64,000 nucleotides of DNA from a phage. Of the stretch, positions 5,434 to 64,000 are shown one piece after another. Position numbers and translations under genes: made by a program. The stretch is taken from the sequence record OZ335959.1, one strand, 5' to 3'. The notes beneath the pieces were generated by a model that saw only the letters and a program-made list of their open reading frames with translations, searched no databases and had not been told where the DNA came from. Each line of letters opens with the position of its first letter. The first letter of the stretch is position 1.

Positions 5434-5666
5434 AGTACGCCATACACCCTTTGTGCTTCAACTAATCCATCAAAATCCAATTTGAGATGTGTTATTTGAT
5501 CACCATCACCTGGATTCACAATTACTAATACTGAACGAGGAGTTTCGGTAATAACACGAACCGATGTTTCTGGAAATCGTTCAGAAACCTTATTTACCAA
5601 TTCCTGGGCAAATAGTTTAACTTTTTCTTGGAATTCTTTAACAGTAATTGGTTTTTCACTTAGCAT
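5430..5666 (-). CDS. hypothetical protein (78 aa)
   Basis: ORF in overlapping early gene array. Confidence 0.5.
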   Translation of the reverse strand: MLSEKPITVKEFQEKVKLFAQELVNKVSERFPETSVRVITETPRSVLVIVNPGDGDQITHLKLDFDGLVEAQRVYGVL

Positions 5667-6187
5667 GTTGATCCCAGCTCCTTACTTTCAACGTTTTTAA
5701 CTAATTTGACAGAAACTAATTCGGCATCTTGGGTAATCATTACCGGGCCTTCTTCATACTCTTCAAGATATTCTAGAGCTTTCTTTTTAGCTTCTTCCTT
5801 CGTATCAGTTTGAGCATAGATATAAAACATACAACCAGTAATACCTACTACTTTCCACTTAATTTCTTTATCAGTTTTAATTTCAAATTTACTGACAGAA
5901 TCATCTTTTTGAACTTCTTCGAAAAAAGAATATTCTAACATATAAGCAATTGAAAATAACGGGCTAACTTTATAGGATTCTCCCATTACATCAACAGCTT
6001 TATACCAACGGTCATCAATTTCGCGTTTAATGCTAATAACATTTTTCGCAGGATCTATTTTTACTTTAAATGAATTTTCCCCAATAAATTGAGCAATTCG
6101 TTTATTAGCCCCACAGGTTTCATTAAAAATATCTTTATATCCAGCTTTAAAACGATAAACCTTATCTTCTTCAAACCATTCGCTCAT
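5660..6187 (-). CDS. hypothetical protein (175 aa)
   Basis: ORF downstream of early-promoter module at 6212-6250. Confidence 0.5.
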   Translation of the reverse strand: MSEWFEEDKVYRFKAGYKDIFNETCGANKRIAQFIGENSFKVKIDPAKNVISIKREIDDRWYKAVDVMGESYKVSPLFSIAYMLEYSFFEEVQKDDSVSKFEIKTDKEIKWKVVGITGCMFYIYAQTDTKEEAKKKALEYLEEYEEGPVMITQDAELVSVKLVKNVESKELGSTC

Positions 6188-10720: not shown

Positions 10721-10751
10721 TTAATATAGTACCACACTCCATGTGGAAGCA

Positions 10752-11162
10752 TCATTTTTTCTTGTGTTGAATATTCCAAGGCGGGTTAAACAGTTTAATG
10801 AATAGTGGCTCCTCTAGGTCAATCGTTGCGATTGTCATTGTACCTAACTCATTTGTCATAGAAAGATTAAAACATTGGCGGGCGTAAAATTCAACTTTGC
10901 TTCCTTCCTTTAGCGCAGCATGAATTAATGCAGATTTAGTAGAATCAGACGTTTTGTCTTTACGGTTAATAGCAGTTCTATAATAGTTTATTCTTTTACG
11001 TAAATTTTTAGTTTTTCCAATATAAACAAGCTCATCATTTATAGCAATAGCATAAATTACATTATACTTGTTTGGAATAGATAATTGTTTTATACTTCCA
11101 TTGTCGTCTAATTCTAGCTCAGTATATTTAATAAATGAATATTCTGTTGCAATTTCTTTCAT
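10752..11162 (-). CDS. denA: endonuclease II (GIY-YIG type)
   Basis: 136 aa from MKEIATEYSF; GIY-YIG-like motif VIYAIA...YIGKT; adjacent to nrdB as in T4. Confidence 0.8.
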   Translation of the reverse strand: MKEIATEYSFIKYTELELDDNGSIKQLSIPNKYNVIYAIAINDELVYIGKTKNLRKRINYYRTAINRKDKTSDSTKSALIHAALKEGSKVEFYARQCFNLSMTNELGTMTIATIDLEEPLFIKLFNPPWNIQHKKK

Positions 11163-11189: not shown

Positions 11190-12359
11190 TTAAAAATATT
11201 TTTTAAAACTCATCATAACTTTATCATCAACATCATTATCAATCTGTGCTACAAGGTAAGATGACAGTTCTACTTCCTGTGGCGCGGATTGAACATTATC
11301 AGAATTAAGGTATTCACGAATCCAAGGATACGGATGTTTAACCGGAGCATCGGTAATTGGGCATGGAAGACCACACTGTTTCATACGAGATACAGTTAAG
11401 TAATCAATAAAGCTCCACATGCTATTTGTATTTAATCCAGGAACATCACCATCTTTAAATAAATGAACTGCCCAGTCTTTTTCTTGACGGTTAACTTCCA
11501 TGAAAATATCAACTGCTTCTTGTTCACACTCTTTGGCGATTTTAACCCATTCATCACCATCAGTGCCAAGTTGAAGTTGACGAATAATATATTGGGTGCC
11601 TTTAAGGTGAAGCTGCTCATCACGTGCAATGAACTTCATAATCTTGGCATTACCTTCCATGATTTCCATGTTCTTATGGAAGTTAAAGGTACATGCGAAA
11701 GATACATAAAAACGAATAGCTTCCAATGCGTTAATTACATGCAAGCAAAGATAAAGAGATTTCATTAGTGCTTGTTTAGTACATTCAACAACTTTGCCTA
11801 ACTCTTCTTTGCGAAATCCTTCTGATAAAATTCCTTCATAATCTTCAACCGCATTCTGATATTCACGAGTCTTAACTAGAACATCATCGTAATAGCGACC
11901 AATGGACTCGGCACGTTTCATAATAGCTTTATCTAATACAATCTCATCAAACACTTTTGACGGATCAGTATAAAGATTTCGCATAATATGAGTGTATGAA
12001 CGGCTGTGAATAGTTTCACTAAAAGTCCATGTAGCAACCCATGTATCAAGGCTTGGGTCTGAAATTAATGACATAAGTACAGCAGACGGTGCACGACCCT
12101 GAATGCTATCTAGAAGTGATTGATACTTCAGGTTATTAGTAAAAATATCTTGCTGATACTGAGGAAGCTTGTTAAATTGCGCAGCATCCATCATCAAGTT
12201 TACTTCTTCAGGACGCCAGAAAAATGATAATTGCTTTTCGGTTAAATCTTCAAAAACTTTATGGCGTTGAATATCATAACGCGCAATACCAAGACCTGAC
12301 CCGAAGAACATAGGTTCTTTTAAAACATCAACTGGATTTGTATTAAAAACTGTGCTCAT
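11190..12359 (-). CDS. nrdB: ribonucleotide reductase small subunit (uninterrupted)
   Basis: 389-aa continuous ORF, class Ia R2-like; no intron interruption. Confidence 0.92.
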   Translation of the reverse strand: MSTVFNTNPVDVLKEPMFFGSGLGIARYDIQRHKVFEDLTEKQLSFFWRPEEVNLMMDAAQFNKLPQYQQDIFTNNLKYQSLLDSIQGRAPSAVLMSLISDPSLDTWVATWTFSETIHSRSYTHIMRNLYTDPSKVFDEIVLDKAIMKRAESIGRYYDDVLVKTREYQNAVEDYEGILSEGFRKEELGKVVECTKQALMKSLYLCLHVINALEAIRFYVSFACTFNFHKNMEIMEGNAKIMKFIARDEQLHLKGTQYIIRQLQLGTDGDEWVKIAKECEQEAVDIFMEVNRQEKDWAVHLFKDGDVPGLNTNSMWSFIDYLTVSRMKQCGLPCPITDAPVKHPYPWIREYLNSDNVQSAPQEVELSSYLVAQIDNDVDDKVMMSFKKYF

Positions 12360-12410
12360 AAATTTTCCGCTTAGTTAATAGATAGTGACTCGTCCGTGAG
12401 TCAAATTATA

Positions 12411-14675
12411 TCATAATTTACAGGATGAACAATCTTCAGCTTTTGGAGTTTCTATTTCATAATCATCAGTACCAGAACCGTCACGGGTATTATGATAATA
12501 GAAATTTTTTCCGCCAAAATACCAAAAATACAAAAGGTCATCAATCATTATTGACATTGGAACCTTTCCTTTTGGAAAAATCTGTGGGTCATAATATGTA
12601 TTCGCTGAAGCTGATTGACACACCCATTTAAGCATAATAGCTACCTGCGTAAGATAAGGTTTATTACCTTTCTTAGCTAATTTCCACGTATAATCATATA
12701 GGTCTATGTTATGCTCAATATTGGGCACGACTTGATTAAAGGAACCCTCTTTTGATTCTTTAACAGAGACTGGTCCACGTGGAGGCTCGATACCGTTTGT
12801 ACTGTTAGAAACTTGGGAAGATGACTCACATGGCATAAGCGCTGATAATGTGCTATTACGGATGCCAAAGAGCTTAAGGTCTTCCCGCAGCGACGACCAG
12901 TCACAAACGTATTTTGGAGCTGCGATTTGGTCAATCTTTTTATTGTACCAGTCAATAGGTAATTCGCCTCGAGACCAACGAGTGTCTGAATAATATTCGC
13001 AAGGTCCTTTTTCTTTGGCGAGCTTAATGGATGCTTTAATGAGTCCATACTGTAATCTCTCGAATAGTTCATGTGTTAAATCGTTAGCATCTTCATAAGA
13101 AGCAAAATTACTTGCCAGCCAAGCTGCATAGTTAGTAACACCTACGCCAAGGTTTCGACGCTTTTTAGCTTTTTCTGCTTCAGGAACCGGATATCCTTGG
13201 TAGTCCAAAAGATTATCAAGAGCACGAACTTGGACTTCTGCCAATTCATTAATTTTATCTTGGTCTTGCCAATCAAAGTTATCTAACACAAATGCAGATA
13301 ACGTGCACAATCCAATTTCAGCATCAGGGCTATTCACATCATTTGTTGGAATAGCAATTTCACAACACAAGTTACTCTGACGAATAGGTGTCTTTTCACG
13401 AATAAATGGCGTATAGTTATTCGTATTATCAATGAACTGTACATAAATCCTTGCTGTTCCTGAGCGTTCAGTCATGAGCAATTCAAACAGTTCACGGGCT
13501 TTAATACGCTTTTTACGAATATTAGGGTCTTTTTCTGCAGCTTCGTATAATTCACGGAAACGGTCTTGGTCTTTAAAATAAGAATAGTAAAGTTCGCCGC
13601 CCATTTCATGCGGACTGAACAAAGTAATGTAATCATTCTTTCCAAATCGTTCCATCATCAAATCATTCAGCTGGACGCCATAATCCATATGACGGATACG
13701 GTTTTCTTCTACACCTTTGTTATTTTTCAAAACGAGAAGATTTTCAACTTCCAAATGCCAAATAGGATAATAAGCAGTAGCAGCGCCGCCACGAATTCCA
13801 CCCTGTGAGCATGATTTAACAGCAGTCTGAAAATGTTTCCAAAAAGGAATAACACCAGTATGGCGTACTTCGCCTGTGCCAATCTTAGAACCTTCGGCAC
13901 GAATCATACCAACGTTAATACCAATTCCAGCACGTTTGGAGATATATTCAACAATTGAAGCGGAAGCCTTATTGATAGACTTTAATGAATCACCTGCTTC
14001 AATAACAACGCATGAACTAAACTGTCGAGTCGGAGTACGGCAACCAGCCATAATAGGAGTTGGTAATGAAATCTGTCGAGTAGATACTGCTTCATAAAAA
14101 CGAATAACATGTTTTAATCTATCAACAGGTTCATCTTGATGTAATGCCATTCCAATAGTCATAAATGCAAACTGTGGAGTTTCATAAATTTGACCAGTGG
14201 TTTTATCTTTAACTAGATATTTTTCTTTTAATTGCATCGCCCCGGAATAAGTAAATTCCATATCCCGTTCGTGCTTAATTTTTGATTCTAAAAATGTAAT
14301 TTCTTCTGCTGAATATTTTGACAACAATTCAGGGTCGTATTTACCTTCATTTACACAGTAAGAAATATGGTCAATAAATGAACGTGGTTCATACTGCCCG
14401 TAAACATGCTTACGAAGAGCGAACATTAAGCAGCGTGCAGCTACATATTGATAATCAGGCTCTTCAACTGAAATAGAATTCGCAGCAGCCTTAATTACAA
14501 TGGTTTGAATGTCATCAGTTGTCATTCCATCACGGAGATATGATTTAATATTTTCATATAATTCATAAGGATCTACAGATGTTCCTTCAGCTGCCCAAGA
14601 TAAAACTTTAATAATTTTTTGCGGATCAAAGCTCTGAGAAACACCACTACTTTTGATAACATTAATTAATTGCAT
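12411..14675 (-). CDS. nrdA: ribonucleotide reductase large subunit
   Basis: 754-aa ORF with ATP-cone N-terminus and C-terminal CxxC tail; class Ia R1. Confidence 0.95.
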   Translation of the reverse strand: MQLINVIKSSGVSQSFDPQKIIKVLSWAAEGTSVDPYELYENIKSYLRDGMTTDDIQTIVIKAAANSISVEEPDYQYVAARCLMFALRKHVYGQYEPRSFIDHISYCVNEGKYDPELLSKYSAEEITFLESKIKHERDMEFTYSGAMQLKEKYLVKDKTTGQIYETPQFAFMTIGMALHQDEPVDRLKHVIRFYEAVSTRQISLPTPIMAGCRTPTRQFSSCVVIEAGDSLKSINKASASIVEYISKRAGIGINVGMIRAEGSKIGTGEVRHTGVIPFWKHFQTAVKSCSQGGIRGGAATAYYPIWHLEVENLLVLKNNKGVEENRIRHMDYGVQLNDLMMERFGKNDYITLFSPHEMGGELYYSYFKDQDRFRELYEAAEKDPNIRKKRIKARELFELLMTERSGTARIYVQFIDNTNNYTPFIREKTPIRQSNLCCEIAIPTNDVNSPDAEIGLCTLSAFVLDNFDWQDQDKINELAEVQVRALDNLLDYQGYPVPEAEKAKKRRNLGVGVTNYAAWLASNFASYEDANDLTHELFERLQYGLIKASIKLAKEKGPCEYYSDTRWSRGELPIDWYNKKIDQIAAPKYVCDWSSLREDLKLFGIRNSTLSALMPCESSSQVSNSTNGIEPPRGPVSVKESKEGSFNQVVPNIEHNIDLYDYTWKLAKKGNKPYLTQVAIMLKWVCQSASANTYYDPQIFPKGKVPMSIMIDDLLYFWYFGGKNFYYHNTRDGSGTDDYEIETPKAEDCSSCKL

Positions 14676-15232: not shown

Positions 15233-16092
15233 TTATACCGCCATCTTTCCTTTAATTGGCGGGTGAGATTCGTAACCTTTAAGAACGAAATCTTTAGGTC
15301 TAAGTTTAAGAACATATTTTAATTGTTCTTTAGTAGAAAGATATCGAAATTTATAAGGTAGACCACTTATTACCAGCTCACAAAGCTCTTTAGGTTCACG
15401 ACGCAAAATTTCTTTACATTGTTCTACGTGATTCATATAGATATGAGTATTACCACCAGAAAATATCAAATCTCCCGGAATAAGATTACACATCTTAGCT
15501 ACAATATGAACTAATGCAGCATATGATGCAATATTAAATGGAAGACCGAGGAAAACATCTACCGAACGTTGATACCACTGCAAATCCAAATAGCCATTAC
15601 GCACATTAAACTGATAGAACATATGACAAGGTGGTAATGCCATATATTTAAGTTCAGCTGGATTCCATGCAGAAACAATTTGACGCCTATCATTTGGTAG
15701 TTTTTTAATACGATCAACAACTTCTATAATTTGGTCTACACCACCAAAATCGCGCCATTGTTTTCCATAAATTGGACCAAGTTCACCACTATGGTATCCT
15801 AAATCTTTTGCTTGATTTTCGTAATTTTCATCCCAGACTGTTTTGCCTTGAATTAATGAATCATGTTGAATTAATCGCAAATCATTGACATTTGTGCTTC
15901 CCGATAAAAACCATATTAGTTCAGCAATGCAAGCTTTCCAGGCGAGCTTCTTAGTCGTTACTGCAGGAAAACCTTTAGTTAAATCCCAGCGTAATTTAGT
16001 ACCGAACAAAGCAATTGTTCCTGTGCCTGTTCGGTCATCGGTTTCGTAGCCATTTTCTAGGATATCTTTAATTAAAAATTGGTATTGTTTCA

Positions 16093-18185: not shown

Positions 18186-18437
18186 TTATTGTTCAATCAG
18201 TCCCATGTAAAATTCTGCGTCTTCAGAATCCATACCATCACAATATTCATTAGCCATAAAGCGGGTGAGGTCTTCAAGAGGACCTTCAATGACAATAGAA
18301 AAATTGCAATAATTGGGATCATCGTGAATACTTGTGATACTAAGCTCAGGATAACGATTACGAATAATTTCTTCAATATATTCAAAATCAACGATGTCAA
18401 TATCAACTTTAGCCATATTATTTTCCTCTTTAATCAT
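18186..18437 (-). CDS. hypothetical acidic protein (83 aa)
   Basis: ORF directly downstream of promoter module at 18455-18492. Confidence 0.5.
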
Positions 18438-18454
18438 CAGCAGTATTGCCGATA

Positions 18455-18492
18455 GTTGTATAGTACCACAGTCCTTGTTGTATGTAAACCGT
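18455..18492 (-). promoter_or_regulatory. early promoter module (-35 GTTTAC 18484-18489; -10 TACTAT 18460-18465) with A/T-rich UP element
   Basis: Near-identical ~70-bp module also at 35125-35198 and 38925-38990. Confidence 0.5.
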
Positions 18493-18510
18493 TTTGTGAA
18501 AAAATTTTTG

Positions 18511-18540
18511 AAATAAAAAAGGGGACCTCTAGGGTCCCCA
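18511..18540 (-). terminator. rho-independent terminator after gene 32 (hairpin GGGGACC-UCUA-GGGUCCCC plus U-run)
   Basis: GC stem-loop followed on minus strand by TTTTTTATTT. Confidence 0.6.
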
Positions 18541-18561: not shown

Positions 18562-19470
18562 TTAAAGGTCATTCAAAAGGTCATCCAGGTCCGTGTCATC
18601 AGCACTAGATGAACTGCCAGAGCTTGAGCTCATAAAATCATCTTCAGTTTTTGTATTGAAGTCATCAACATTGAATGCATCCAAATCATCAGCAACTTTA
18701 TCAGCTTTCTTAGCGGCAGTCGCTGCGGCACCACCCATAGCAGCAGTTCCCATAACTTGACTAAACTTAGCGCTCAGTTCTTCAAACGATTTGAATTTAT
18801 CTTTAGAAGTCATTTCAGAAAGGTCAACCATTTGTTCGAACAGTTCTTTCTGGAAAGATTCATCATCAATGTTTGGAATCGCAGATTGATTCAGGAATTT
18901 AGATTCGTCGTAGTTACTAAAACCAGAAACTTGTTTAACTTTCAGTACAAAGTTAGCACCTTCCCACGGACAAGTTACATCAACCGGAGTTTCACCCATT
19001 TCAACATCAACTGCAATCATTGCATTGATTTTATCCCAGATTTTCTTGCCGAAACGGTATTTAAATACTTTACCTTCATTTTCTGGAGCAGCTGGGTCTT
19101 TTACTACAAGAATGTTAGCCCAGTAAGAAGTTTTACGTTTAACAAGACCGTACTCTTTATTGTCAGTATTGTACAAATCATTTTTACTGATGTACTGACA
19201 TACTGGACAAGAATCGTAATCACCGTGGGTAGATGAACAGTTTTCAATATACCATTTACCATTTTTCTTGAAACCGTGATTTACAAGAATTGCGAATGGT
19301 GCTTGTTCATCATTTTTAGACGGAAGAAAACGAATTACTGCTTGACCGTTACCCGCATTGTCGAGTTTCAGTTTCCACTCGCCTTTATCTTCAGAAGAAA
19401 AACCACCTTTATTTCCAGCCAGTTTAGCCATTTGTGCAGCGAGTTCAGCAGTAGATTTACGTTTAAACAT
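18562..19470 (-). CDS. 32: single-stranded DNA-binding protein gp32
   Basis: 302-aa ORF; zinc-binding Cys/His cluster and acidic Ser/Asp-rich C-terminal tail characteristic of gp32. Confidence 0.95.
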
Positions 19471-19545
19471 TTTTATTTCCTTTTTAATTTAATTAACAGT
19501 TGGTGCTATGACGATGTATGACCTCATAGCTGGTCAGTGAGATAA
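19471..19545 (-). promoter_or_regulatory. gene 32 translational operator (5' leader with H-type pseudoknot UGACC/GGUCA and GCUAUG/CAUAGC, then A/U-rich tract)
   Basis: Minus-strand leader reads ...UGACCAGCUAUGAGGUCAUACAUCGUCAUAGCACC...AAUUAAAUUAAAAAGGAAAUAAAAAUG, matching the gp32 autoregulatory site as I recall it. Confidence 0.7.
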
Positions 19546-19553
19546 TTATAATC

Positions 19554-19561
19554 TATTTATA
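19554..19561 (-). promoter_or_regulatory. late promoter TATAAATA upstream of gene 32
   Basis: Exact TATAAATA on minus strand. Confidence 0.55.
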
Positions 19562-19569
19562 ATAAGCAA

Positions 19570-21835: not shown

Positions 21836-24800
21836 ATGGCCGAGATTAAAAGAAAGTTCAGAGCAGAAGATGGTCTGGACGCAGGTGGCGATAAAATAAT
21901 CAACGTAGCTTTAGCTGATCGTGCCGTAGGAACTGACGGTGTTAACGTTGATTACCTAATTCAAGAAAACACAGTTCAACAATATGATCCAACTCGTGGA
22001 TATTTAAAAGATTTTGTAATCATTTATGATAACCGCTTTTGGGCTGCTATAATTGATATTCCAAAACCGGCAGGAGCTTTTAATAGCGTGCGCTGGAGAG
22101 CATTACGTACTGATGCAAACTGGACAACTGTTTCGTCAGGACCTTATCAATTAAAGTCAGGTGAATCAATTTCAGTTAATACTGCAGCAGGAAATGATAT
22201 CACATTTACTTTGCCAACTTCTCCAATTGATGGAGATACTATCGTTCTTCAAGATATTGGTGGAAAACCCGGAGTTAACCAAGTTTTAATTACAGCTCCA
22301 GTGCAAAGCATTGTAAATTTTAGAGGTCAGCAAGTACGATCAGTATTAATGACCCATCCAAAATCACAGATAGTTTTAATTTTTAGTAATCGTCTGTGGC
22401 AAATGTATGTTGCTGATTATAGCAGAGAAGCGGTAGTTGTGACGCCAGCAAGTCTCTATCAGGCACAGTCAAATGATTTTATCGTGCGCAGATTTACTTC
22501 TGCTGCTACAATTAATATTAAACTTCCGAGATTTGCTAATCATGGAGATATTATTAATTTTGTTGATTTAGATAAATTAAATCCGCTTTATCATACAATT
22601 GTCACGACATATGATGAAACAACTTCAGTACAAGAAGTTGGAACTCATTCTATTGAAGGTCGTACATCGATTGATGGTTTCTTGATGTATGATGATAATG
22701 AGAAATTATGGAGATTATTTGACGGGGATAGTAAAGCACGTTTACGCGTTATAACAACTAATTCTAATATTCGTCCAAACGAAGAAGTTATGGTATTTGG
22801 TGCGAATAATGGAACAACTCAAACAATTGAACTTCAGCTTCCGACCGATATTTCCATTGGTGATACTGTTAAAATTTCCATGAATTACATGAGAAAAGGA
22901 CAAACAGTTAAAATCAAAGCTGCCGGGGAAGATAAAATTGCTTCTTCAGTTCAATTGTTGCAATTCCCAAAGCGTTCAGAATATCCGCCTGAAGCTGAAT
23001 GGGTGACTGTCCAAGAATTAGTTTTTAACGGTGAAACTAATTATGTTCCAGTTTTACAACTTGCTTATATAGAAGATTCTGACGGAAAATACTGGGTTGT
23101 ACAGCAAAACGTTCCAACAGTTGAAAGAGTCGATTCTTTAAATAATTCTACTAGAGCAAGATTAGGCGTAATTGCTTTAGCTACACAAGCTCAAGCTAAC
23201 GTCGATTTAGAAAATTCTCCACAAAAAGAATTAGCAATTACTCCAGAAACATTAGCTAACCGTACTGCTACAGAAACTCGTAGAGGTATCGCAAGAATAG
23301 CAACTACCGCTCAAGTGAATCAGGACACTACATTCTCTTTTGCTGACGATATTATCATCACTCCTAAAAAGCTGAATGAAAGAACTGCTACAGAAACTCG
23401 TAGAGGTGTTGCTGAAATTGCTACGCAACAAGAAACTAATACAGGTACTGATGATACTACAATCATCACTCCTAAAAAGCTTCAAGCTCGACAAGGTTCT
23501 GAATCATTATCGGGTATTGTAACCTTTGTATCTACCGCAGGAGCTACTCCAGCCTCTAGTCGTGAATTAAATGGTACAAACGTTTACAATAAAAACACTA
23601 ATAATTTAGTTGTTTCGCCTAAAGCTCTAGATCAGTATAAAGCTACTCCAACACAGCAAGGCGCAGTAATTTTAGCAGTTGAAAGTGAAGTAATTGCTGG
23701 ACAGAGTCAAGAAGGATGGGCAAATGCGGTTGTAACGCCAGAAACGTTACATAAAAAGACATCAACTGATGGAAGAATCGGTTTAATTGAAATTGCTACG
23801 CAAAGCGAAGTTAATACAGGAACTGATTATACTCGTGCAGTCACTCCTAAAACTTTAAATGACCGTAAAGCAACTGAAAGTTTAAGTGGTATAGCTGAAA
23901 TTGCTACACAAGTTGAATTCGACGCAGGCGTCGACGATACTCGTATCTCTACACCATTAAAAATTAAAACTAGATTTAATAGTACTGATCGTACTTCTGT
24001 TGTTGCTCTATCTGGATTAGTTGAATCAGGAACTCTCTGGGACCATTATACCCTTAATATTCTTGAAGCAAATGAGACACAGCGTGGTACACTTCGTGTG
24101 GCTACACAAGTTGAAGCTGCTGCAGGGACATTAGATAATGTTCTAATAACTCCTAAAAAGCTTTTAGGTACTAAATCTACTGAAGCGCAAGAAGGCGTTA
24201 TTAAAGTTTCAACTCAAGTTGAAACTGTAGCTGGAACGTCAGCAAATACTGCTGTATCTCCAAAAAATTTAAAATGGATTGTACAGAGTGAACCTACTTG
24301 GGCAGCAACTACTTTGGTAAGAGGTTTTGTTAAAACTTCATCTGGTTCAATTACATTCGTCGGTAATGATACTGTTGGTTCAACACAGTCATTAGAATTA
24401 TACGAGAAAAATAGCTATGCAGTATCTCCATATGAATTAAACCGTGTATTAGCAAATTATTTGCCATTAAAGGCAAAAGCTGCTGACACGAATTTATTGG
24501 ATGGTCTAGATTCATCCCAGTTCATTCGTAGGGATATTGCGCAGACGGTTAATGGTTCACTAACCTTAACTCAACAAACGAATCTGAGTGCCCCTCTTGT
24601 ATCATCTAGTACTGCTACGTTTGGTGGATCAGTTTCGGCAAATAGTACACTAACTATTTCTAATACTGGAACAGCAACTCAATTGATTTTTGAGAAAGGA
24701 CCTCAATCTGGAACGAACCCAGCGCAGACGATGACTGTCAAAGTGTGGGGAAATCAATTTAGTGGGGAATCAGATACAACACGTTCTACTGTATTTGAAG

Positions 24801-26891: not shown

Positions 26892-27548
26892 ATGGCTGAT
26901 TTAAAAGTAGGTTCAACAACTGGAGGCTCTGTCATTTGGCATCAAGGAAATTTTCCATTGAATCCAGCCGGTGACGATGTACTCTATAAATCATTTAAAA
27001 TATATTCAGAATACAATAAACCACAAGCTGCTGATAACGATTTCGTTTCTAAAGCTAATGGTGGTACGTATTTAAATAAAGTAATTTTTAATAAAGGAAT
27101 GACTGTTCCTGGTGCAGGGTCAGGTGACAACGGTATTTTTGCTGGTCCTGGTGATAATGCCACGTATGATACTACAAATATGGATATTGTTTCGTGGTAT
27201 GGTATTGGTTTTAAATCATCACAAGGAACAGCAGGTAGAACTGTAGTAATTAACACACGAAATGGAGATATTAGCTCAAAGGGTGTAATTGAAGCATCAC
27301 AAATGCGCGCAACTTCATTATCTCCAGTAAATAATTATGACCTTACGCGGAAAGATTATGTCGATGGTGCAATAAATATTGTTACAGCAAACGCAAACTC
27401 TAGGGTATTACGCTCTGGAGACACTATGACAGGTAACTTAACCGCGCCAAACCTTTTTTCACAGAATCCTGCATCTCAACCTTCGCATGTTCCACGATTT
27501 GATCAAATTGTTATTAAGGATTCTGTTCAAGATTTCGGCTATTATTAA
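26892..27548 (+). CDS. 36: long tail fibre distal connector gp36
   Basis: 218-aa ORF. Confidence 0.85.
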   Translation: MADLKVGSTTGGSVIWHQGNFPLNPAGDDVLYKSFKIYSEYNKPQAADNDFVSKANGGTYLNKVIFNKGMTVPGAGSGDNGIFAGPGDNATYDTTNMDIVSWYGIGFKSSQGTAGRTVVINTRNGDISSKGVIEASQMRATSLSPVNNYDLTRKDYVDGAINIVTANANSRVLRSGDTMTGNLTAPNLFSQNPASQPSHVPRFDQIVIKDSVQDFGYY

Positions 27549-27556: not shown

Positions 27557-31679
<4,123 letters not shown>

Positions 31680-31709
31680 TTTGAATAAATATCCTTAAAA
31701 GGAGGGTCT

Positions 31710-35094: not shown

Positions 35095-35129
35095 TTTCTA
35101 ATCTCCGTAATTCTGTATCAGTAGTTGAT

Positions 35130-35168
35130 AGTTGTATAGTACCACAGTATGCTTTGGTTGTAAACCGT
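35130..35168 (-). promoter_or_regulatory. early promoter module upstream of motA (-35 GTTTAC 35160-35165)
   Basis: Same conserved module as at 18455-18492. Confidence 0.5.
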
Positions 35169-35190
35169 TTTGTGAAAAAATTTTTGAAAT

Positions 35191-35217
35191 AAAAAAGGGA
35201 GAGCCTCGGCTCTCCCT
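35191..35217 (-). terminator. rho-independent terminator (GGGAGAGCC-UCGG-CUCUCCC plus U-run)
   Basis: GC-rich hairpin followed by T-run on minus strand. Confidence 0.6.
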
Positions 35218-38434: not shown

Positions 38435-38470
38435 GGTAATAATACCACAGAGGAACAGTCTTGTAAACAA
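38435..38470 (-). promoter_or_regulatory. early promoter module (-35 GTTTAC 38463-38468)
   Basis: Conserved module. Confidence 0.45.
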
Positions 38471-38653: not shown

Positions 38654-38917
38654 TCATAGTTCAATCTCAGCGATTTTCATTTCATTACTATTAATAGCCG
38701 CTTTAAGACTATCTGAAAGAATTACATTCCAGTGGTCATTCATATGACCATTAACTAAGCGTGTAATTTCTTCGGGAGTTGAAAAATAAGGCGTATCAGA
38801 CTCCCAATGCGATAATCCCAAGCGAGTATAAATCATACCTTCATCATCGCTAGAATATTCAACTGACACAAACTCATCAGTTATTTTATGTTTAGCGTAA
38901 TAAAATTTAAATTTCAT
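38654..38917 (-). CDS. hypothetical protein (87 aa)
   Basis: ORF downstream of promoter module 38940-38976. Confidence 0.5.
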   Translation of the reverse strand: MKFKFYYAKHKITDEFVSVEYSSDDEGMIYTRLGLSHWESDTPYFSTPEEITRLVNGHMNDHWNVILSDSLKAAINSNEMKIAEIEL

Positions 38918-38939
38918 TTTTACTCCTCCGTAGCTGATA

Positions 38940-38976
38940 GTTGTATAGTACCACAGTCCTTGTGGTATGTAAACCG
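38940..38976 (-). promoter_or_regulatory. early promoter module (-35 GTTTAC 38969-38974)
   Basis: Near-identical to modules at 18455 and 35130. Confidence 0.5.
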
Positions 38977-38990
38977 TTTTGTGAAAATTT

Positions 38991-39548
38991 TTAAATGGAA
39001 AGATACCATCCGTTGTAGTTGCTTTTTCTTACAACCTTACGAAGGTCTTCTCTATCACCAATGAACTTCGGAGTGTACTGGATGACACCTGGATGAATTT
39101 CTTTAGTGTTGAATATAATTATACAGTCAGCGACCTGATGATTCAGAATGGGCCCTAGATTTATTCCAGAACCATATGGATACTCTCCGCTGCATCCTGT
39201 TGTTACAGAAATCCAACGTGAGTCAGTTTGATGTGTCTTAACTTCTACACGAAGCCCGCAGTATCTTGGATGCGCCAATACATCCCATGCATATGTATAC
39301 GGGTCATTAACATCTTCTTGGCCTTTGTTAACATACCCGCTTAGCCAATCTGCTACAAAAAACTCTGCGTACACCGCGATACGGCATCTTTCGATAACTT
39401 CTGCTTTATCCTGATTTGGATTTTGTTTTAAAGAGTATCTTGCTGTATCAGCAATTTTGACCTTCATTTCACTAGTCAAGTCACTGTTCGATAGGGTAAA
39501 TGTCGGAATCTGAAATAGTCTCTGTAAACCCGGATTCGTTTTCTGCAT
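38991..39548 (-). CDS. denB: endonuclease IV
   Basis: 185-aa ORF, same length and position (below rIIB) as T4 denB. Confidence 0.7.
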   Translation of the reverse strand: MQKTNPGLQRLFQIPTFTLSNSDLTSEMKVKIADTARYSLKQNPNQDKAEVIERCRIAVYAEFFVADWLSGYVNKGQEDVNDPYTYAWDVLAHPRYCGLRVEVKTHQTDSRWISVTTGCSGEYPYGSGINLGPILNHQVADCIIIFNTKEIHPGVIQYTPKFIGDREDLRKVVRKSNYNGWYLSI

Positions 39549-39810: not shown

Positions 39811-39825
39811 AATTTTTCCTTAAAA

Positions 39826-39850
39826 CAAAAGGGCCGAAGCCCCTTATTTT
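39826..39850 (-). terminator. GC hairpin (GGGCCGAAGCCCC) flanked by U-runs; terminator or RNA-stability element
   Basis: Stem-loop with GNRA-type loop; a similar hairpin at 40060-40075 follows the rIIB stop. Confidence 0.4.
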
Positions 39851-40043
39851 ATTTGAATTGTGCAATTCTTTTTTCTAAACAATCTGCGTAAGATTTCATT
39901 GAGATGAACTGTGAAAGCAGTAATTCTTGCTCAACTTCATTAATCGTTAGAAACTTTGTGCTTTCTAAAAATTTGCTCAGTGCATTAATTTTGAGCATTA
40001 ATTGATCGTATTCTTCTTTTACTCGTGCTTGATAACCTAACAT
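39849..40043 (-). CDS. hypothetical protein (64 aa)
   Basis: ORF bracketed by two GC hairpins. Confidence 0.45.
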   Translation of the reverse strand: MLGYQARVKEEYDQLMLKINALSKFLESTKFLTINEVEQELLLSQFISMKSYADCLEKRIAQFK

Positions 40044-40071
40044 AATTTTCCTTAGTTAAGGGCCGAAGCCC

Positions 40072-41010
40072 TTATTTAAATTGTTCAGTAACGTCTTCAA
40101 CTACTTCGTATTGGCAGGTACGCATTTTAGCATCATTGTAATCAATCGGAATTGATACTACATCGCGAGGATGTACTTTAACTTTTACAACTCGACTGGT
40201 TGAACTGCCAAAGTGACGAATATAAGATTTAGAACACACATGCAGACCACGAGAACAAGTTTGTGTATCATCGTCATTCACACGAGTGCGTGGCATTTTA
40301 ACTACTTTACCAGGACTGTTATCAAAAGTATTTGAATGGCAGTCAAAGTAATTACTGCGAACTACTTTCCAAGCATAGAAGTAACCATCTTCTGTGATTT
40401 CAATATCGTTTGCTACCAAGAAATCAAAGAGTCGAGATACCGCTTTTTGGCTCGGGTTTTCCAACAGATTTTCCAAGAACGGAAAATAAAATTCAAAGTT
40501 TTCGCCTTTTTCCATCGAATCGAGAATACGATCAACTAAACCAGATCGCAATTCAATATTTTGATAGAACAAGCTTCCACCTTCAATTCGAACATCACCG
40601 GAAATATATTTTTCAACAGCGCGACGAACATTAATTTTTTGTGCCGCTTCTTCCAATTTATCTGCAACAAGCAGATTAAGAATTTCCTGGAAGTTTGAAT
40701 GAGTATTAGGAGTTGCGTTATAAGTTACACCGTCAACAGTAATTGAAATGAATTTTTTAGATGCATTCCAAATAATGTCAGATTTAGCAACTGGAGCGAT
40801 AGCTGTATCGCTATTAACTTTAACTGTAATATCACCACTAATAGTAACTTTAGAGCGCTCAGCTTCTTCAGCATTTTTCAAAACACGACGGATTGTGTCC
40901 ACCGATACACCTTGCCAATCAGCCAATTCCTGTTGGGTGTAATTACCACTTGAATACAGTTTGACAATTTCAGATTGTTCGTTTTTGGTCAGGCATTTAA
41001 TATTGTACAT
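40072..41010 (-). CDS. rIIB: rIIB lysis-inhibition/membrane integrity protein
   Basis: 312-aa ORF (same length as T4 rIIB), directly downstream of rIIA. Confidence 0.9.
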   Translation of the reverse strand: MYNIKCLTKNEQSEIVKLYSSGNYTQQELADWQGVSVDTIRRVLKNAEEAERSKVTISGDITVKVNSDTAIAPVAKSDIIWNASKKFISITVDGVTYNATPNTHSNFQEILNLLVADKLEEAAQKINVRRAVEKYISGDVRIEGGSLFYQNIELRSGLVDRILDSMEKGENFEFYFPFLENLLENPSQKAVSRLFDFLVANDIEITEDGYFYAWKVVRSNYFDCHSNTFDNSPGKVVKMPRTRVNDDDTQTCSRGLHVCSKSYIRHFGSSTSRVVKVKVHPRDVVSIPIDYNDAKMRTCQYEVVEDVTEQFK

Positions 41011-41021
41011 AATTTTCCTTA

Positions 41022-43470: not shown

Positions 43471-45288
43471 TTGGCTCATCCATTCTTTACGAAGGTCAGC
43501 ATTATCTCCCATGAGCATTTCAAAAAGCTCTTTCCAGTTCTCAGGAAGTTTAACAACATCATATACTGGGTTTTGAATCATCTCACGATATTCAGATTTT
43601 TCCAAAGAGCCAAGTCCCTTAATATAACGGATGCTATGTTTAGGTAGAGCATCTTTGGCACTCTCATATTCAGCGACTGTATAAAACCATTCTTGTTTTT
43701 TACCGACCTGAGCGATGATTACAGGAGTTTTGACGAAGCGAATTCTTCCTTGTTCAAACAGTTCTGGCCAATTGCTAAAAAATCCGAGCAGAGAAGGATA
43801 AATGCTTCCTAGACCATCATGGTCAGCATCGGTCATAATAGCAATATTATGATAATTCAAGTTTTCAGCTTTTTCACCAAGAACTAATCCAGTGATTGCG
43901 CAAATATCAAACAGTTCTTTGTTTTTAAGCATATCGGCATAAGACATACCCCAGCTATTAAGAACTTTACCACGCAATGGATAACCACCATGAAGTTCTT
44001 TATCACGAACATCAATAAGATATCCGATAGCAGAATCACCCTCAGTCAAGAAAAGAGTAGTGTCAGCGTCTTTACCGCAAAGATTCGCTTTAATATGTTT
44101 ATGAACCTTAGCTTTAGAAGCCTTTTTAGCTGCTTTAGTTTCAGCTGCTTTTTCTGCAGCCAATTTACGAGCCAAAGCAGCTTCAATAATTGGCATTAAA
44201 ATTGCTTCATTATTTAAAATAGCACGTGAAATCTTTTTAGCATCAAGCTGAATATGACTACGAATTTCACCAAATGGAGAAGTCAAACGCTCTTTAGTCT
44301 GAGAATCAAATCGCATGTTTTTCATATCACGAACAAACATAACGATAGTCAAACATTCTTTAACACGTGCTTTAGTTACATCAATTTTGAACTTGCGTTT
44401 GATTTGTGGAATAAGGTCTTCACAAATATCATCCATAACGCAGTCAATGTGATGGCCACCATTCTTAGTATGAATGTTATTAACGTATGTTAATTGACGA
44501 AAACCATCAGGTGAACGACCAACCGCAATAGAACAATTTTCTTGTTCTTGAACAATAGCATGCTCATCATATTGGCGTGCATATTTCTTAAAATTACCCT
44601 GAACCTTTTTACCATTAAAGGTAAATTGAATATCAGGATAAACTACTGCAAGTGTCTGGAGACGATCCAGTGTAATGTCAAGATAAACTTGAGACAGCTC
44701 ATTAGTTTCAAATGACATAAAATCAGGAATGAAAGTAACACGAGTTCCTTTCCATTTTCCGGGAATATCTTCCCATGATTTATTTTCCATGCCATTTGAA
44801 CAACGAACTACAATATTATTTTGACCGTCGCCAGTTTCACCGACAAACATCACAGAAAAAATGTTAGTTAAACTAGAACCAACACCGTTCATACCGCCAG
44901 TGACGCGTTCTTTATCATCGCCGAAGTTACCACCTGCTTTTGGAATAGTCCAAGCAGCAACAGGACCAGGAATTTCTTCACCAGTAGGTGTTTTAACCAT
45001 CGCTTGTGGAATACCGCGACCGTTATCTTCAACTGTTACCTGATTATTTTTAATGGTAACATTAATTTTATTTGCGAATTTAAACTTAGTACGAATACCT
45101 TCATCTACTGAGTTATCGATAATTTCATCAATAAGCTTAACAAGACCAGGTACATACTGAACACTTTCCCATTTACCAAACAGAAAGCGCTCATGCATTT
45201 CATTAGCGGAAGAGCCAATGTACATGCCGCTACGCTTTTTGATATGTTCAATATCGCTCAGAATTTTAATTTCATTCTTAATCATCAC
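43468..45288 (-). CDS. 39: DNA topoisomerase II large (ATPase) subunit, single unsplit polypeptide (T4 gp39 + gp60 equivalent)
   Basis: 606-aa continuous ORF with GyrB-like ATPase and TOPRIM regions; no internal stop or bypass gap. Confidence 0.92.
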   Translation of the reverse strand: MMIKNEIKILSDIEHIKKRSGMYIGSSANEMHERFLFGKWESVQYVPGLVKLIDEIIDNSVDEGIRTKFKFANKINVTIKNNQVTVEDNGRGIPQAMVKTPTGEEIPGPVAAWTIPKAGGNFGDDKERVTGGMNGVGSSLTNIFSVMFVGETGDGQNNIVVRCSNGMENKSWEDIPGKWKGTRVTFIPDFMSFETNELSQVYLDITLDRLQTLAVVYPDIQFTFNGKKVQGNFKKYARQYDEHAIVQEQENCSIAVGRSPDGFRQLTYVNNIHTKNGGHHIDCVMDDICEDLIPQIKRKFKIDVTKARVKECLTIVMFVRDMKNMRFDSQTKERLTSPFGEIRSHIQLDAKKISRAILNNEAILMPIIEAALARKLAAEKAAETKAAKKASKAKVHKHIKANLCGKDADTTLFLTEGDSAIGYLIDVRDKELHGGYPLRGKVLNSWGMSYADMLKNKELFDICAITGLVLGEKAENLNYHNIAIMTDADHDGLGSIYPSLLGFFSNWPELFEQGRIRFVKTPVIIAQVGKKQEWFYTVAEYESAKDALPKHSIRYIKGLGSLEKSEYREMIQNPVYDVVKLPENWKELFEMLMGDNADLRKEWMSQ

Positions 45289-55938: not shown

Positions 55939-55975
55939 TTCTATTATACCATACTTGTTTTGGAAAGTAAACCGG
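55939..55975 (-). promoter_or_regulatory. early promoter module (-35 GTTTAC 55967-55972)
   Basis: Conserved module. Confidence 0.45.
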
Positions 55976-55982
55976 TAAAATG

Positions 55983-56009
55983 AAAAAAGGACTCCCGAAG
56001 GAGTCCTTG
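55983..56009 (-). terminator. rho-independent terminator after soc (GGACUCC-CGAA-GGAGUCC plus U-run)
   Basis: Identical hairpin to 2874-2891. Confidence 0.55.
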
Positions 56010-56290: not shown

Positions 56291-56298
56291 TATTTATA
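56291..56298 (-). promoter_or_regulatory. late promoter TATAAATA upstream of soc
   Basis: Exact TATAAATA on minus strand 30 nt upstream of soc ATG. Confidence 0.6.
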
Positions 56299-56332
56299 AT
56301 AAATTCTCACAGCTTTTAAGCCGTCGTTTATA

Positions 56333-56851
56333 TTAATAACCTCGGTCTTGACGAGCGAAGTTTTCAGCATTTTTCAGATAATAAAGTTTAAAGATTTCTT
56401 CAGCCGTAAGACCGAGACCTTGGAACATGTTCAGAACGAAATGAAGAATATCAATCATTTCGAATTTAATTTCCAACTGGTCTTGTGGAGATAAGTCAGT
56501 AATCAGAGTTTCACGACGTTCACCGTGTTGCGACTTCCAAGGCTTCCATACAGCAGATGCATCTTTTTCGCCATTGCTCATACCACCAAGAGAAGTCAGA
56601 AGTTCGCGGAATTCATCATCAATATAATCTTTCTGATTACGCAGCCAATCAACAACTTCACCTGCAGTAGCCAAATCATCAGGATGACGGTTATATTCAG
56701 GTTTATCTTTAGCTAAACGAACTTGCAGAGATTTCTGCATATCAAGCATAACCTGCAGCGGGTCTTTTTCATCACCGAGAATATCCCAGTATTCATTTTG
56801 AGCTTTATCAGCGCCTTCAATTAGTTGACTACATTCGTTAAAGTATGCCAT
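56333..56851 (-). CDS. 56: dCTP pyrophosphatase (dCTPase/dUTPase) gp56
   Basis: 172 aa from MAYFNE (track ORF runs 93 nt further upstream); AAGGA RBS; MazG-like. Confidence 0.85.
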   Translation of the reverse strand: MAYFNECSQLIEGADKAQNEYWDILGDEKDPLQVMLDMQKSLQVRLAKDKPEYNRHPDDLATAGEVVDWLRNQKDYIDDEFRELLTSLGGMSNGEKDASAVWKPWKSQHGERRETLITDLSPQDQLEIKFEMIDILHFVLNMFQGLGLTAEEIFKLYYLKNAENFARQDRGY

Positions 56852-56922
56852 TATTTTTCCTTTCAATTCATGGGTTAGTAGATTAATTATACAATAAATA
56901 TATAAAGCAATAAGGAGGACAT

Positions 56923-61594: not shown

Positions 61595-62750
61595 TTAACT
61601 GATCTAGGTCAGTTTCTAAATCAGCTGCTGATTTACTTTTACTTTCTGGAGATTTAAATTTTTCAACCTTTGAGTTAATCAATTCATCAACTTCAGCTTC
61701 AACAATTTCATTACTATCAATAGCACCTAACTGATAAGCGCGTTTAATAGCATCTCGGAATGGCTGATGCTTAAATAAAGGACCCCAGAATGTAGTGCAA
61801 TTGGTATCTTTTGCACGCCAAGATTTTTCTTCGCGAATCATCTCGCCGGTTTCTTCGTCAAGAAATTCACGAGCATACCAGCCATTTTTAGGTTTTACCA
61901 CAAATCCTAATTCAAGAGCCATATCTAACAATCCAGAATAAGGATCGATGCCACCGTCAAATTTAACATCAATAAAGAATTTACTTTTTTCTTTAACGGT
62001 ACGAGATTTTTCTACATTTAGAACAAATTGATACCCCTGAAGATCAGAACCATCTTTAATCTGGCGCTTACCGATAATGAATACAGTATCAGCCGAATAC
62101 ATTACGCCTGTACCACCTGTCATCACGGTTTTACTAAACATTTCAATTGTTTCAATTGTATGGTTAACCGCAACACACGGAATGTTTTTAATACTAAAAT
62201 AAGGAGTAACAATACGAAATAATGACTTCAGCGATTTAGCACGAGTCATATCTGCCACAGATTTTTCATTCAAGGCATCTTCCGTTTCTTTCTTAGAAGC
62301 CATATTACCGATTGAGTCGATGAATACAATAACTTTTTCACCACGCTCAATAGCTTCAAGCTGATTCACCATATCAATTTTCAGTTGTTCAACTGACTGG
62401 ATTGGGGTATGAATTACTCGTTCCGGGTCAACTCCCATGGATCGCAAATAAGCGGGAGTAATACCAAATTCGCTATCATAGAATAGACATACCGCGTCAG
62501 GATATTTGTTCAAATACGCCGCAACCATAGTCAAAGACATATTTGATTTAAAGTGTTTAGAAGGACCTGCAAAAATGGTTAAACCAGACTGCATACCACC
62601 GTCAATCGCACCTGAAATAGCGATATTAAGCATTGGGATTTTTGTACGGATTACATCCTTTTCATTAAAGAATTTAGATGTAGTCAGTTCAGCAGTCATT
62701 TTAGAAGTGGAAGCTTTAATCAAACGGGATTTTAAATCTGCAATAGACAT
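61569..62750 (-). CDS. uvsX: UvsX recombinase (RecA-like)
   Basis: 393-aa ORF with Walker A GPSKHFKS and RecA-fold motifs. Confidence 0.92.
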   Translation of the reverse strand: MSIADLKSRLIKASTSKMTAELTTSKFFNEKDVIRTKIPMLNIAISGAIDGGMQSGLTIFAGPSKHFKSNMSLTMVAAYLNKYPDAVCLFYDSEFGITPAYLRSMGVDPERVIHTPIQSVEQLKIDMVNQLEAIERGEKVIVFIDSIGNMASKKETEDALNEKSVADMTRAKSLKSLFRIVTPYFSIKNIPCVAVNHTIETIEMFSKTVMTGGTGVMYSADTVFIIGKRQIKDGSDLQGYQFVLNVEKSRTVKEKSKFFIDVKFDGGIDPYSGLLDMALELGFVVKPKNGWYAREFLDEETGEMIREEKSWRAKDTNCTTFWGPLFKHQPFRDAIKRAYQLGAIDSNEIVEAEVDELINSKVEKFKSPESKSKSAADLETDLDQLSDMEEFNE

Positions 62751-62827
62751 TCATTTTTTCCATAGGCATCATTATATTTTCCTCACTGGTTAAAGATAGA
62801 GTAATTATAACACAATAAATTTAGGCA

Positions 62828-63676
62828 TTAATCAACTGCTATTGGATGAATAGCATTAAACTTATGAAACGCTTCTGATTTTTCTTTGCGCGAAACACAC
62901 ATGCGAAGAACCTTTAATGGCTCGTCTTCTTCACCCAACGATTTTCTCTTTTCAATATTTGATGTTTTCCAACGAGCTTGCTCTGGAAACTCTCTATTGA
63001 TTTGCTCAAGAGCTCTATTATGTTTTGAATTACTACGAATTGAACTACATCCGCCAGGAGCTTGCGCTTTTCCAGATACAACCAGATATTTGAACAAGGC
63101 CAAATGCGGATAACCTTGATTAATTAAATTGAGAAATGCATACATATCTTCGCATAAATCAATTTTTCCATACCCAATTTGTTCTGTTGTAAGTTTTCCA
63201 AGGTCATACCAAGTATTCGTGAATCCATATGAATTTTCACGATAATTACCCCAAGATGAAGTAATTTTAAAAATTGGTAAACGAGCATGACCATGATAAT
63301 ACCCGCAATCCATGGCATCTTCAACGTATTGAATCAATTCATAGAACTGTTCACGGGTTAATTGATTAATTTTATCTACGCAGCGACGATCATCTTTCTT
63401 TCGCATTGAACTCATACGAATAGTAGTATCATCATCAATCATCCAAATTCGTTGACCTGCATACATTTCAGTAATTGCTTTGCGAGTGCCAGCAATTCCA
63501 TTAACATCATCGGGAATAGTTATAATTTTGGCTCTAGACCCGTAAGCGTCATAATAAGCTTTTTCTTCGTGTTCACGTACTACAATATGAGGTTCATAAT
63601 CAGTCGGAAACATATCAAGGGCAGAAACTGCCCCTACGCGTTGATAGCTTGGAATTACGAATTGAATCATTTCCAC
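62828..63676 (-). CDS. DxD-motif glycosyltransferase (GT-A-like); probable DNA hydroxymethylcytosine glucosyltransferase at the beta-gt locus
   Basis: 282-aa ORF with IWMIDDD motif; sits between uvsX and 42 where T4 encodes the 351-aa beta-gt. Confidence 0.55.
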   Translation of the reverse strand: MEMIQFVIPSYQRVGAVSALDMFPTDYEPHIVVREHEEKAYYDAYGSRAKIITIPDDVNGIAGTRKAITEMYAGQRIWMIDDDTTIRMSSMRKKDDRRCVDKINQLTREQFYELIQYVEDAMDCGYYHGHARLPIFKITSSWGNYRENSYGFTNTWYDLGKLTTEQIGYGKIDLCEDMYAFLNLINQGYPHLALFKYLVVSGKAQAPGGCSSIRSNSKHNRALEQINREFPEQARWKTSNIEKRKSLGEEDEPLKVLRMCVSRKEKSEAFHKFNAIHPIAVD

Positions 63677-64000
63677 TCACCATTATAATCTTTTTTCGCA
63701 ATATGAGTTTCGCCAGTTTTCCACCAATGGTCAACCAAATAAAAATGACGGGAATACACATGAAGGCTTCCGACATTCCATATAATGGAACCTGCTTTAT
63801 ACTGACGAGTTGAATCACCTGCATTCAAATCAGATACTAATTTATCTAGTACGTATTTTTGCCATGCATAATCATTACGGAATCCGAAGACTACGTCATT
63901 TGAACGCATGCTTACTACTGCATTGACTTTCTTATCACGAATCAGGTACTGTACTGTATTCGTACACATGAAATCTGACATACCGTCTTTATTGTAGTCA
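63667..64000 (-). CDS. 42: dCMP hydroxymethylase gp42, C-terminal part (gene continues beyond window end)
   Basis: Translation ...DFMCTNTVQYLIRDKK...HVYSRHFYLVDHWWKTGETH matches the C-terminal half of T4 gp42; no true start in window. Confidence 0.85.
   Translation of the reverse strand, partial: DYNKDGMSDFMCTNTVQYLIRDKKVNAVVSMRSNDVVFGFRNDYAWQKYVLDKLVSDLNAGDSTRQYKAGSIIWNVGSLHVYSRHFYLVDHWWKTGETHIAKKDYNGEWK

Follow-up and report, generated by a model that had tools for sequence, protein, structure and literature searches.

Dispersed T4-type early promoter cassettes, some of them joined to a terminator, in a 64-kb segment of a T4-like phage genome

Promoter-early stem-loop (PeSL) cassettes have been described from T4-like phages, and the shuffling of small open reading frames (ORFs) that they are proposed to mediate has already been published (Arbiol et al. 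2010, PMC2839356; Comeau et al. 2014, PMC4122927). The early promoters of T4 are composed of an UP element, a -35 element, a TGn motif and a -10 element, with GTTTAC at -36 to -31 and further consensus positions (Hinton 2010, PMC2988021; Nolan et al. 2006, PMC1524935). According to the T4 literature, the early promoter Pe148.6 was verified by primer extension, and its transcription unit extends from 150,727 to 146,948 in T4. Translation-occluding hairpins are known from the T4 genes e, soc, 49 and I-TevI (Uzan and Miller 2010, PMC3014915).

The stretch of DNA analysed here, referred to as the window, comprises 64,000 nucleotides (64 kb) of the phage record OZ335959.1. As judged by comparison with database genomes, it is a segment of a T4-like (Tequatrovirus) genome. 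The region around the repeats showed 96–97% DNA identity to many Tequatrovirus genomes, and the whole window was collinear with T4 positions 127,290-168,903, followed by 1-25,812. Position 1 of T4 corresponds to position 41011 of the window, and the plus strands of both correspond. Relatives were taken from GenBank phage records; a pattern scan of IMG/VR gave few T4-like genomes.

The nrdB and td introns, mobE, segG, the mobA/60.1 region, segF and the dam region of T4 are absent from the window; different sequence is found in place of segA and b-gt, and unrelated sequence in place of distal gene 37 and gene 38. Sites of difference from T4 were located at 11692-11695, 12359-12415, 15544-15545, 19533-19569, 27743-31685, 43803-43868, 56298-56370, 56891-56912 and 62738-63685. 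The coding region of gene 34 (proximal tail fibre) contains, at 23237-24162, internal direct repeats of about 33–70 nt with 66–82% identity (repeat families D4 and D7, also seen in the self-BLAST of the window). A search of the window against Rfam found no family.

Repeats A, B and C and the parts of the cassettes

Three copies of a repeat, all read on the minus strand, were compared. Repeat A (18451-18539), between gene 32 and frd.3, carries the putative gene 32 terminator and then the frd.3 early promoter; repeat B (35127-35216), between motA.1 and motA, carries the putative motA.1 terminator and then the motA early promoter; and repeat C (38936-39000), preceded by denB (stop codon 38991-38993) and followed by a small variable ORF, has the promoter only and starts at the stop codon of denB. 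An earlier note on this DNA had reported near-exact recurrence at 18451-18520 and 35125-35198 and a looser copy at 38925-38990, with exact repeats of 22–40 nt at 18.4 kb and 35.1 kb, and had proposed a self-alignment of the window as a check. The sequences were present as quoted, and the exact runs in common between A and B were of 41 nt (18483-18523 = 35159-35199) and 22 nt (18451-18472 = 35127-35148). For A and C these runs were of 28 and 23 nt, and for B and C of 23 and 20 nt.

In the self-BLAST of the 64-kb window, A-B (73 nt, 90.4%, E 2e-21), A-C (65 nt, 92.3%, E 3e-19) and B-C (73 nt, 86.3%, E 9e-14) were the three top non-self matches and thus the strongest internal repeats. Promoter or terminator cassettes accounted for nine of the 14 self-BLAST matches with E < 1e-3, and a repeat search of the window placed copies A, B and C in its top families D1-D3. 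Over 85 ungapped positions, the mutual identities of A, B and C were 82%, 72% and 64%; the remaining pairs of promoters had 40 ± 8% (maximum 60%), so the three copies are outliers in their family. The self-BLAST E-values, the motif counts given below and these identities above the family level indicate that the repeats are real and far beyond chance.

The gene upstream of cassette A is gene 32 (ssDNA-binding protein; 18562-19470, minus strand), a 302-aa ORF with the acidic gp32 C-terminus that maps to T4 gene 32, and its transcript is predicted to end in cassette A. The terminator (18515-18539, minus strand) consists of the hairpin GGGGACC-CUAGA-GGUCCCC (18539-18521) followed by U6 (18520-18515), with an RNA fold of -14.3 kcal/mol. 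It was detected by both terminator scans, a strict one for a hairpin plus T-run and a looser one with the terminator tool's own criteria, and a terminator is annotated at the orthologue of cassette A in G50, Lutter and fPS-65. The A/T-rich UP-element block ATTTCAAAAATTTTTTCACAAAACG (18490-18514), located inside the 41-nt run identical to B, has A-tracts near -40 and -54. The core promoter (18460-18489) is formed by the -35 element GTTTACA (18489-18483), the spacer TACAACAAGGACTGTGG (18482-18466) with a TGG end, and the -10 element TACTAT (18465-18460); with 58.8 bits in the weight matrix it was the best-scoring promoter in the window, and it also matched the consensus pattern. After the -10 element follow the start region ACAACTATC, the leader ACAACTATCGGCAATACTGC, the Shine–Dalgarno (SD) sequence AAAGAGG and the frd.3 homologue (ATG at 18416, stop at 18186; leader and gene at 18186-18459, minus strand), which maps to T4 frd.3.

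The order of the elements in cassette B was the same as in cassette A. The terminator after motA.1 (35191-35216, minus strand) has the hairpin GGGAGAGC-CGAG-GCUCUCCC, followed by U6, with an RNA fold of -20.1 kcal/mol and z = -4.4; it was detected by both scans and is annotated in Lutter and fPS-65. The promoter (35136-35190, minus strand), with an UP block, the -35 element GTTTACA (35165-35159), the spacer ACCAAAGCATACTGTGG and the -10 element TACTAT (35141-35136), precedes motA (ATG at 35094) and is recorded as 'predicted early promoter' in fPS-65. By their sequences, the hairpins of A and B have the features of intrinsic (rho-independent) terminators, and termination would occur within their U-runs.

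Copy C (promoter at 38945-39000, minus strand) has an UP block running from the denB stop, the -35 element GTTTACA (38974-38968), the spacer TACCACAAGGACTGTGG and the -10 element TACTAT (38950-38945). Folding and the terminator scans found no terminator upstream of it, only a weak 5-bp A/U-rich stem, since its A/T block begins at the denB stop codon. Its leader and the variable 87-aa ORF (MKFKFYY...; ORF at 38654-38917) occupy 38654-38944 on the minus strand. The ORF overlaps the start of ndd.6. A further copy, D (38439-38468, minus strand), located 506 nt downstream of C, is the early promoter of the ndd.4 homologue.

Two other composite cassettes were found on the minus strand. The third (2814-2893) has the terminator GGACUCC-UUCG-GGAGUCC with U6 upstream of the early promoter (-35 at 2843) that belongs to the 30.8 homologue. 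The fourth (55943-56008), found also as repeat family D17, lies after soc and has the same hairpin sequence as the third, here in front of the mrh.2 homologue with its early promoter (-35 at 55972). The strict scan of the minus strand of the 64 kb gave exactly four hairpin-plus-T-run sites, those of A, B, 2843 and 55972, and in all four the distance from the end of the T-run to the early -35 element downstream of it was 11–26 nt, with the U-run passing into the A/T-rich upstream element. The looser scan of the 64-kb window found none further adjoining another early promoter. The earlier note had described each copy as an early promoter with an UP element next to a GC-hairpin terminator. The promoter and UP part of that description holds for A, B and C, but the terminator part holds for only four of the 18 early promoters (A, B, 2843 and 55972), and the name 'promoter-terminator module' fits these four only, since copy C and 13 others are without a terminator.

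A second family of repeated hairpins, GGGGCCGAAGCCCC (repeat family D5), was observed in intergenic positions at 1983-2020, 30873-30888, 39816-39853 and 40045-40082. On the minus strand these hairpins have a tetraloop of the C(UUCG)G type, and they resemble the GGGC/GCCC motifs that Mosig, as cited in later work, linked to T4 deletions.

The family of 18 early promoters

The published T4/PST consensus TTTACW-N16-18-TAYWAT was scanned against expectations from dinucleotide shuffles. It gave 14 matches on the minus strand, with 0.5 expected, and one on the plus strand, with about 1 expected. A scan of the window with a generic sigma-70 consensus gave 77 sites, with 72.5 expected and hence no enrichment; only the T4-specific motif discriminates. 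With the weight-matrix scan and one variant (ATATACA at 46955), the early-promoter sites amounted to 18, all of them on the minus strand and each with an SD and an ATG 40–75 nt downstream, which bears out looser copies upstream of at least 12 other minus-strand genes, as had been claimed. The genes downstream include orthologues of frd.3, motA, asiA, modB, dmd, motB and others.

The other early promoters without a terminator (2423-59795, minus strand), based on the consensus and weight-matrix scans, have the first base of the -35 element at 2451, 6247, 17777, 21790, 32700, 43468, 46955 (the ATATACA variant), 47555, 48672, 53866, 59292 and 59795. The 6247 promoter is the orthologue of the early promoter Pe133295 named in the T4 record, and the 21790 promoter is that of T4 Pe148.6, whose unit reaches the end of gene 32, the point at which cassette A begins. 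Tandem pairs are formed by C and D (506 nt apart), 17777 and A (712 nt), 2451 and 2843 (392 nt), and 59292 and 59795 (503 nt). The same promoter sites were present in 10 genomes. In the independently annotated records of Lutter and fPS-65, the orthologues of A and B are labelled 'promoter' or 'predicted early promoter' and also 'terminator', and that of C is labelled as a promoter.

Copies A, B and C are all of the form GTTTACA-N17-TACTAT, with TGG directly before TACTAT and with upstream A/T tracts, AAAAATTTTTT at about -56 to -46 and AAAA at about -42 to -39. In sequence they agree with a T4-type early promoter in every respect considered. The reading of the A/T block as a putative UP element follows the E. 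coli UP consensus and Hinton 2010. The start sites would be located near 18453 (A), 35129 (B) and 38938 (C). The GGAG-type SDs in the leaders of B, C and D may correspond to the RegB cleavage motif of early mRNAs.

Inverted repeats across the -10 box, in which the untranscribed spacer pairs with the leader, were observed at the minus-strand promoters 38468, 59795, 2451, 2843, 6247, 48672, 17777 and 47555. The mean best -10-spanning stem was of 7.9 bp, compared with 6.5 ± 0.3 bp (maximum 7.4) in 300 shuffles. The longest were at 38468 (copy D), where the spacer pairs with the copy's own SD, GGAGG, in a 14-bp stem, and at 59795, with a 13-bp stem. The stems are kept in T4, where four of six substitutions preserve pairing, six being too few for a covariation test to decide. 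Since the part of the stem upstream of the start site pairs with the leader or SD, the stem could form only on read-through transcripts, and on these only it could occlude the SD.

A site resembling a middle promoter was observed at 10725-10760 on the minus strand, with a MotA-box-like TGCTTC located 13–14 nt upstream of TACTAT. It has the block CCACA..TGTGGTACTAT in common with the early promoters A and C (repeat family D15).

Exchange between copies in related genomes

The region from gene 32 to rIIB was compared in 10 genomes (the window, T4, T2, RB51, EPIMRB01, Lutter, fPS-65, ESh26, RB27 and pSe_SNUABM_01). At locus A, the 17-nt spacer occurred as three unrelated alleles between near-identical flanks. 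T4, Lutter and ESh26 carry AGCATAAAGCTTTATGG; T2, RB51, fPS-65 and RB27 carry TCCTTGTCCTTCCATGG or TCCCTGTTCTTCCATGG, an allele with a 14-nt run in common with the T4 early promoter near T4 position 27,073; and EPIMRB01 carries TACCACAAGGACTGTGG, identical to the C spacer at 17 of 17 positions, the window A spacer agreeing with it at 16 of 17 and pSe_SNUABM_01 carrying a variant. For each allele, at least six records matched exactly (97/97); these matches are examples and not frequencies, and BLAST coverage joined pieces across a mismatched spacer. The B spacer was invariant in the 10 genomes.

Copies C and D were found to have swapped start regions: D of Lutter has ACAACTATC, and C of pSe_SNUABM_01 has TACCTTATC. 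Three leader variants occur at C, one of them identical to the D leader. Downstream of C three states were distinguished: T4 has no ORF there, the window and five other genomes have the MKFKFYY ORF, and T2, RB27 and ESh26 have an unrelated one. The T4 state is an in-frame deletion between AATGAAA 7-nt microrepeats that left the last eight codons of the lost ORF as the mini-ORF MKIAEIEL. A deletion between two cassettes was considered for this state and rejected, the junctions being the 7-nt microrepeats.

At locus B, ECML-123-2 (positions 600-1075 of the extracted segment) has an extra 75-aa ORF between motA.1 and motA, with two tandem early promoters around it and the leader ATCAAATAAATGAACTGAAAC repeated. 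The extra ORF is also present in ELT1, and in ECML-123-2 a different terminator hairpin, GGGGAGCTTCGGCTCCCC, precedes the same UP block. At the 6247 promoter, a 519-nt insertion with respect to T4 (5665-6185), with an extra ORF (MSEWFEEDK...), begins exactly at the start codon behind the promoter; a second cassette was searched for at its far edge and none was found. The insertion overlaps the start of cd.2. ORF variation beside cassettes was clear at C, at B (in ECML-123-2) and at 6247, and two cassette-adjacent indels have their junctions at a start codon or at 7-nt microrepeats, not between two cassettes. Over the whole window, three of the 22 indels with respect to T4 had an edge in a cassette, with 1.4 expected (P = 0.14), so the enrichment was not significant; many of the remaining indels are intron or homing-endonuclease differences.

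The hairpin loops also vary among relatives. The loop of cassette A (18521-18539) is CTAGA in eight genomes and TCTAG in T2, fPS-65 and RB27, all five loop bases being different; the centre of the loop of cassette B (35197-35216) is GA in five genomes and TC in five, uncorrelated with the polymorphism in A. Both loops are therefore found in both orientations, a pattern suggestive of repeated inversion of the loop through strand switching at the inverted repeat.

From the spacer, start-region, leader and ORF patterns the cassettes appear to be chimeric through recombination between copies. They fit a short-patch homologous exchange in which promoter and leader would serve as the homology arm, the direction and mechanism of spacer exchange being deduced from the 10 genomes only. 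In the general sense, the proposal that the copies are recombination substrates is supported, with patch exchange among relatives and differing ORF cassettes at B and C.

It could be speculated, with considerable doubt, that T-even early cassettes are assemblies of exchangeable sub-blocks (hairpin, UP, spacer, -10/start and leader) reshuffled by short-patch ectopic conversion and by strand switching at the hairpin, and that the -10 stems would limit translation to transcripts from the cassette's own promoter.

Explanations considered and comparison with described systems

We regard it as highly probable that A, B and C are T4-type early promoters, joined in A and B to the terminator of the upstream gene, that they represent the published PeSL cassette, and that they are alike by descent and by continuing short-patch exchange. 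As in T4, the host sigma-70 RNA polymerase would start at these promoters immediately after infection. A complete cassette would be read in the order GC hairpin with U6, UP, -35 GTTTACA, 17-nt spacer with a TGG end, -10 TACTAT, ACAACTATC, leader with a GGAG-type SD, and ATG. In the four composite cassettes the hairpin would end the upstream transcript and the promoter would restart transcription for the next gene; because the hairpin would stop incoming transcripts, each of them would insulate and restart transcription. As A, B and C are more alike than the promoter consensus requires, their similarity may be attributed to shared descent together with continuing short-patch homologous exchange (ectopic gene conversion), and the conserved promoter and leader would act as a homology arm for swaps of neighbouring small ORFs between phages.

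A chance origin of the repeats in A/T-rich intergenic DNA could be suggested by the base composition of the region and by the generic sigma-70 scan, with its 77 sites against 72.5 expected; this reading is refuted by the E-values (2e-21 to 9e-14), the 41-nt exact run, the excess of the T4-specific motif (14 against 0.5 expected) with its complete strand bias, and the conservation of the copies at orthologous sites in 10 genomes, and hardly any credence can be given to it. Selection for an optimal promoter only, either as convergence or as purifying selection after an old duplication and in both cases without recombination, would account for the UP, -35, TGn and -10 elements that all copies have in common and for the invariant B spacer in the 10 genomes, and T4 early promoters are known to have consensus positions beyond the hexamers (PMC2988021). 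However, the consensus gives 40 ± 8% identity and not the 64–82% of the three copies, locus A tolerates three unrelated spacers, one of them identical at 17 of 17 positions to that of C 20 kb away, and the reciprocal C/D swaps of the start region occur in two relatives, so that selection as the only cause is improbable. Only slightly less improbable is that the cassettes are dedicated mobile elements, excised and integrated as mini-circles, possibly by a stem-loop-specific recombinase, as in the strong PeSL model. In RB49 and phi1, experiments revealed mini-circles formed between tandem PeSLs (PeSL literature), the ORF of ECML-123-2 at B stands between two tandem promoters with a repeated leader, and the window has the tandem pairs C/D, 17777/A, 2451/2843 and 59292/59795; against this, the PeSL literature knows no such recombinase, most copies are without a stem-loop terminator, the junctions examined fall in leaders, start codons or microrepeats, and indels are not enriched at cassettes.

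The earlier note had also proposed that the A and B repeats could delete or duplicate the block between them, taken to be a block of late genes. The block (16.7 kb) contains 32, 59, 33, dsbA, rnh, 34-38, t, asiA, arn and motA, a mixture of early, middle and late genes. That recoverable variants would arise in this way is favoured by the direct orientation of A and B, with their 41 and 22 nt of exact identity, and by the sufficiency of short homology for T4 recombination attributed to Singer 1982 in second-hand citation. Several facts speak against it. Deletion of motA is lethal (T4 literature), and neither of the synthetic A x B deletion and duplication junctions was matched over at least 80% of the query in the sets of 503 and 676 related records. 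The presence of 32, 33, 34-38, t and asiA in the block also counts against a viable deletion. By established T4 genetics, other genes of the block are essential as well, and a deletion of the block would be lethal since several of its genes are essential. The headful slack of T4 is roughly 3%, and a duplication of 16.7 kb (about 10% of the genome) exceeds the headful capacity. Rearrangement between A and B as a source of viable phage is therefore disfavoured and very unlikely, and repeats of this kind should not be taken to predict large rearrangements that are viable.

The window provides one more T4-like genome in which cassettes would insulate transcription units and serve as short homology patches, a small consequence in itself. 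For annotation, the gain consists of 18 putative early promoters and four putative terminators with coordinates.

Lambdoid morons, as described by Hendrix et al. 2000 in second-hand citation, are likewise small ORFs with their own promoter and terminator; in contrast to the cassettes, and as far as that citation goes, their regulatory sequences are neither conserved repeats nor credited with mediating exchange. The occluding hairpins of T4 have a counterpart in the stems that, in about half of the promoters of the window, join the leader or SD by base pairing to sequence upstream of the start site, but those of T4 involve late promoters, whereas the promoters here are early and the occlusion is putative.

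With the T4 early promoters the likeness is close, since the copies of the window have GTTTAC at -36 to -31, the TGn-extended -10 and UP, and the genes that follow them are orthologous to early genes of T4. A and B have direct orthologues among the T4 sites, which are nearly identical to them in sequence. Nothing essential differs, the window A having a C-type spacer where T4 A has AGCATAAAGCTTTATGG. Directly behind gene 32, T4 and the window have an identical terminator, GGGGACCCTAGAGGTCCCC with T6, the loop of which is inverted in T2, fPS-65 and RB27. The T4 gene 32 terminator is the one used in the omega interposon.

This kind of early-promoter/terminator cassette is already known as PeSL, and the repeats noted earlier were confirmed here; what is added are concrete cases in which dispersed promoters exchanged patches, together with the side observations. 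The window differs from the described PeSLs in that the upstream terminator is present in four of 18 copies and in that indels with respect to T4 are not significantly enriched at cassettes. In sequence, A, B, 2843 and 55972 correspond to the composite cassette, and the other 14 are without an upstream terminator, many of them having a -10-spanning stem. The window shares with the PeSLs the A/T-rich region, the sigma-70-type early promoter, the stem-loop terminator just upstream, a 3' end with SD and ATG, the T4/PST promoter consensus (TTTACW-N17-TAYWAT), the dispersed copies, with clear cases of variable small ORFs beside them at C, B and 6247, and the chimeric copies.
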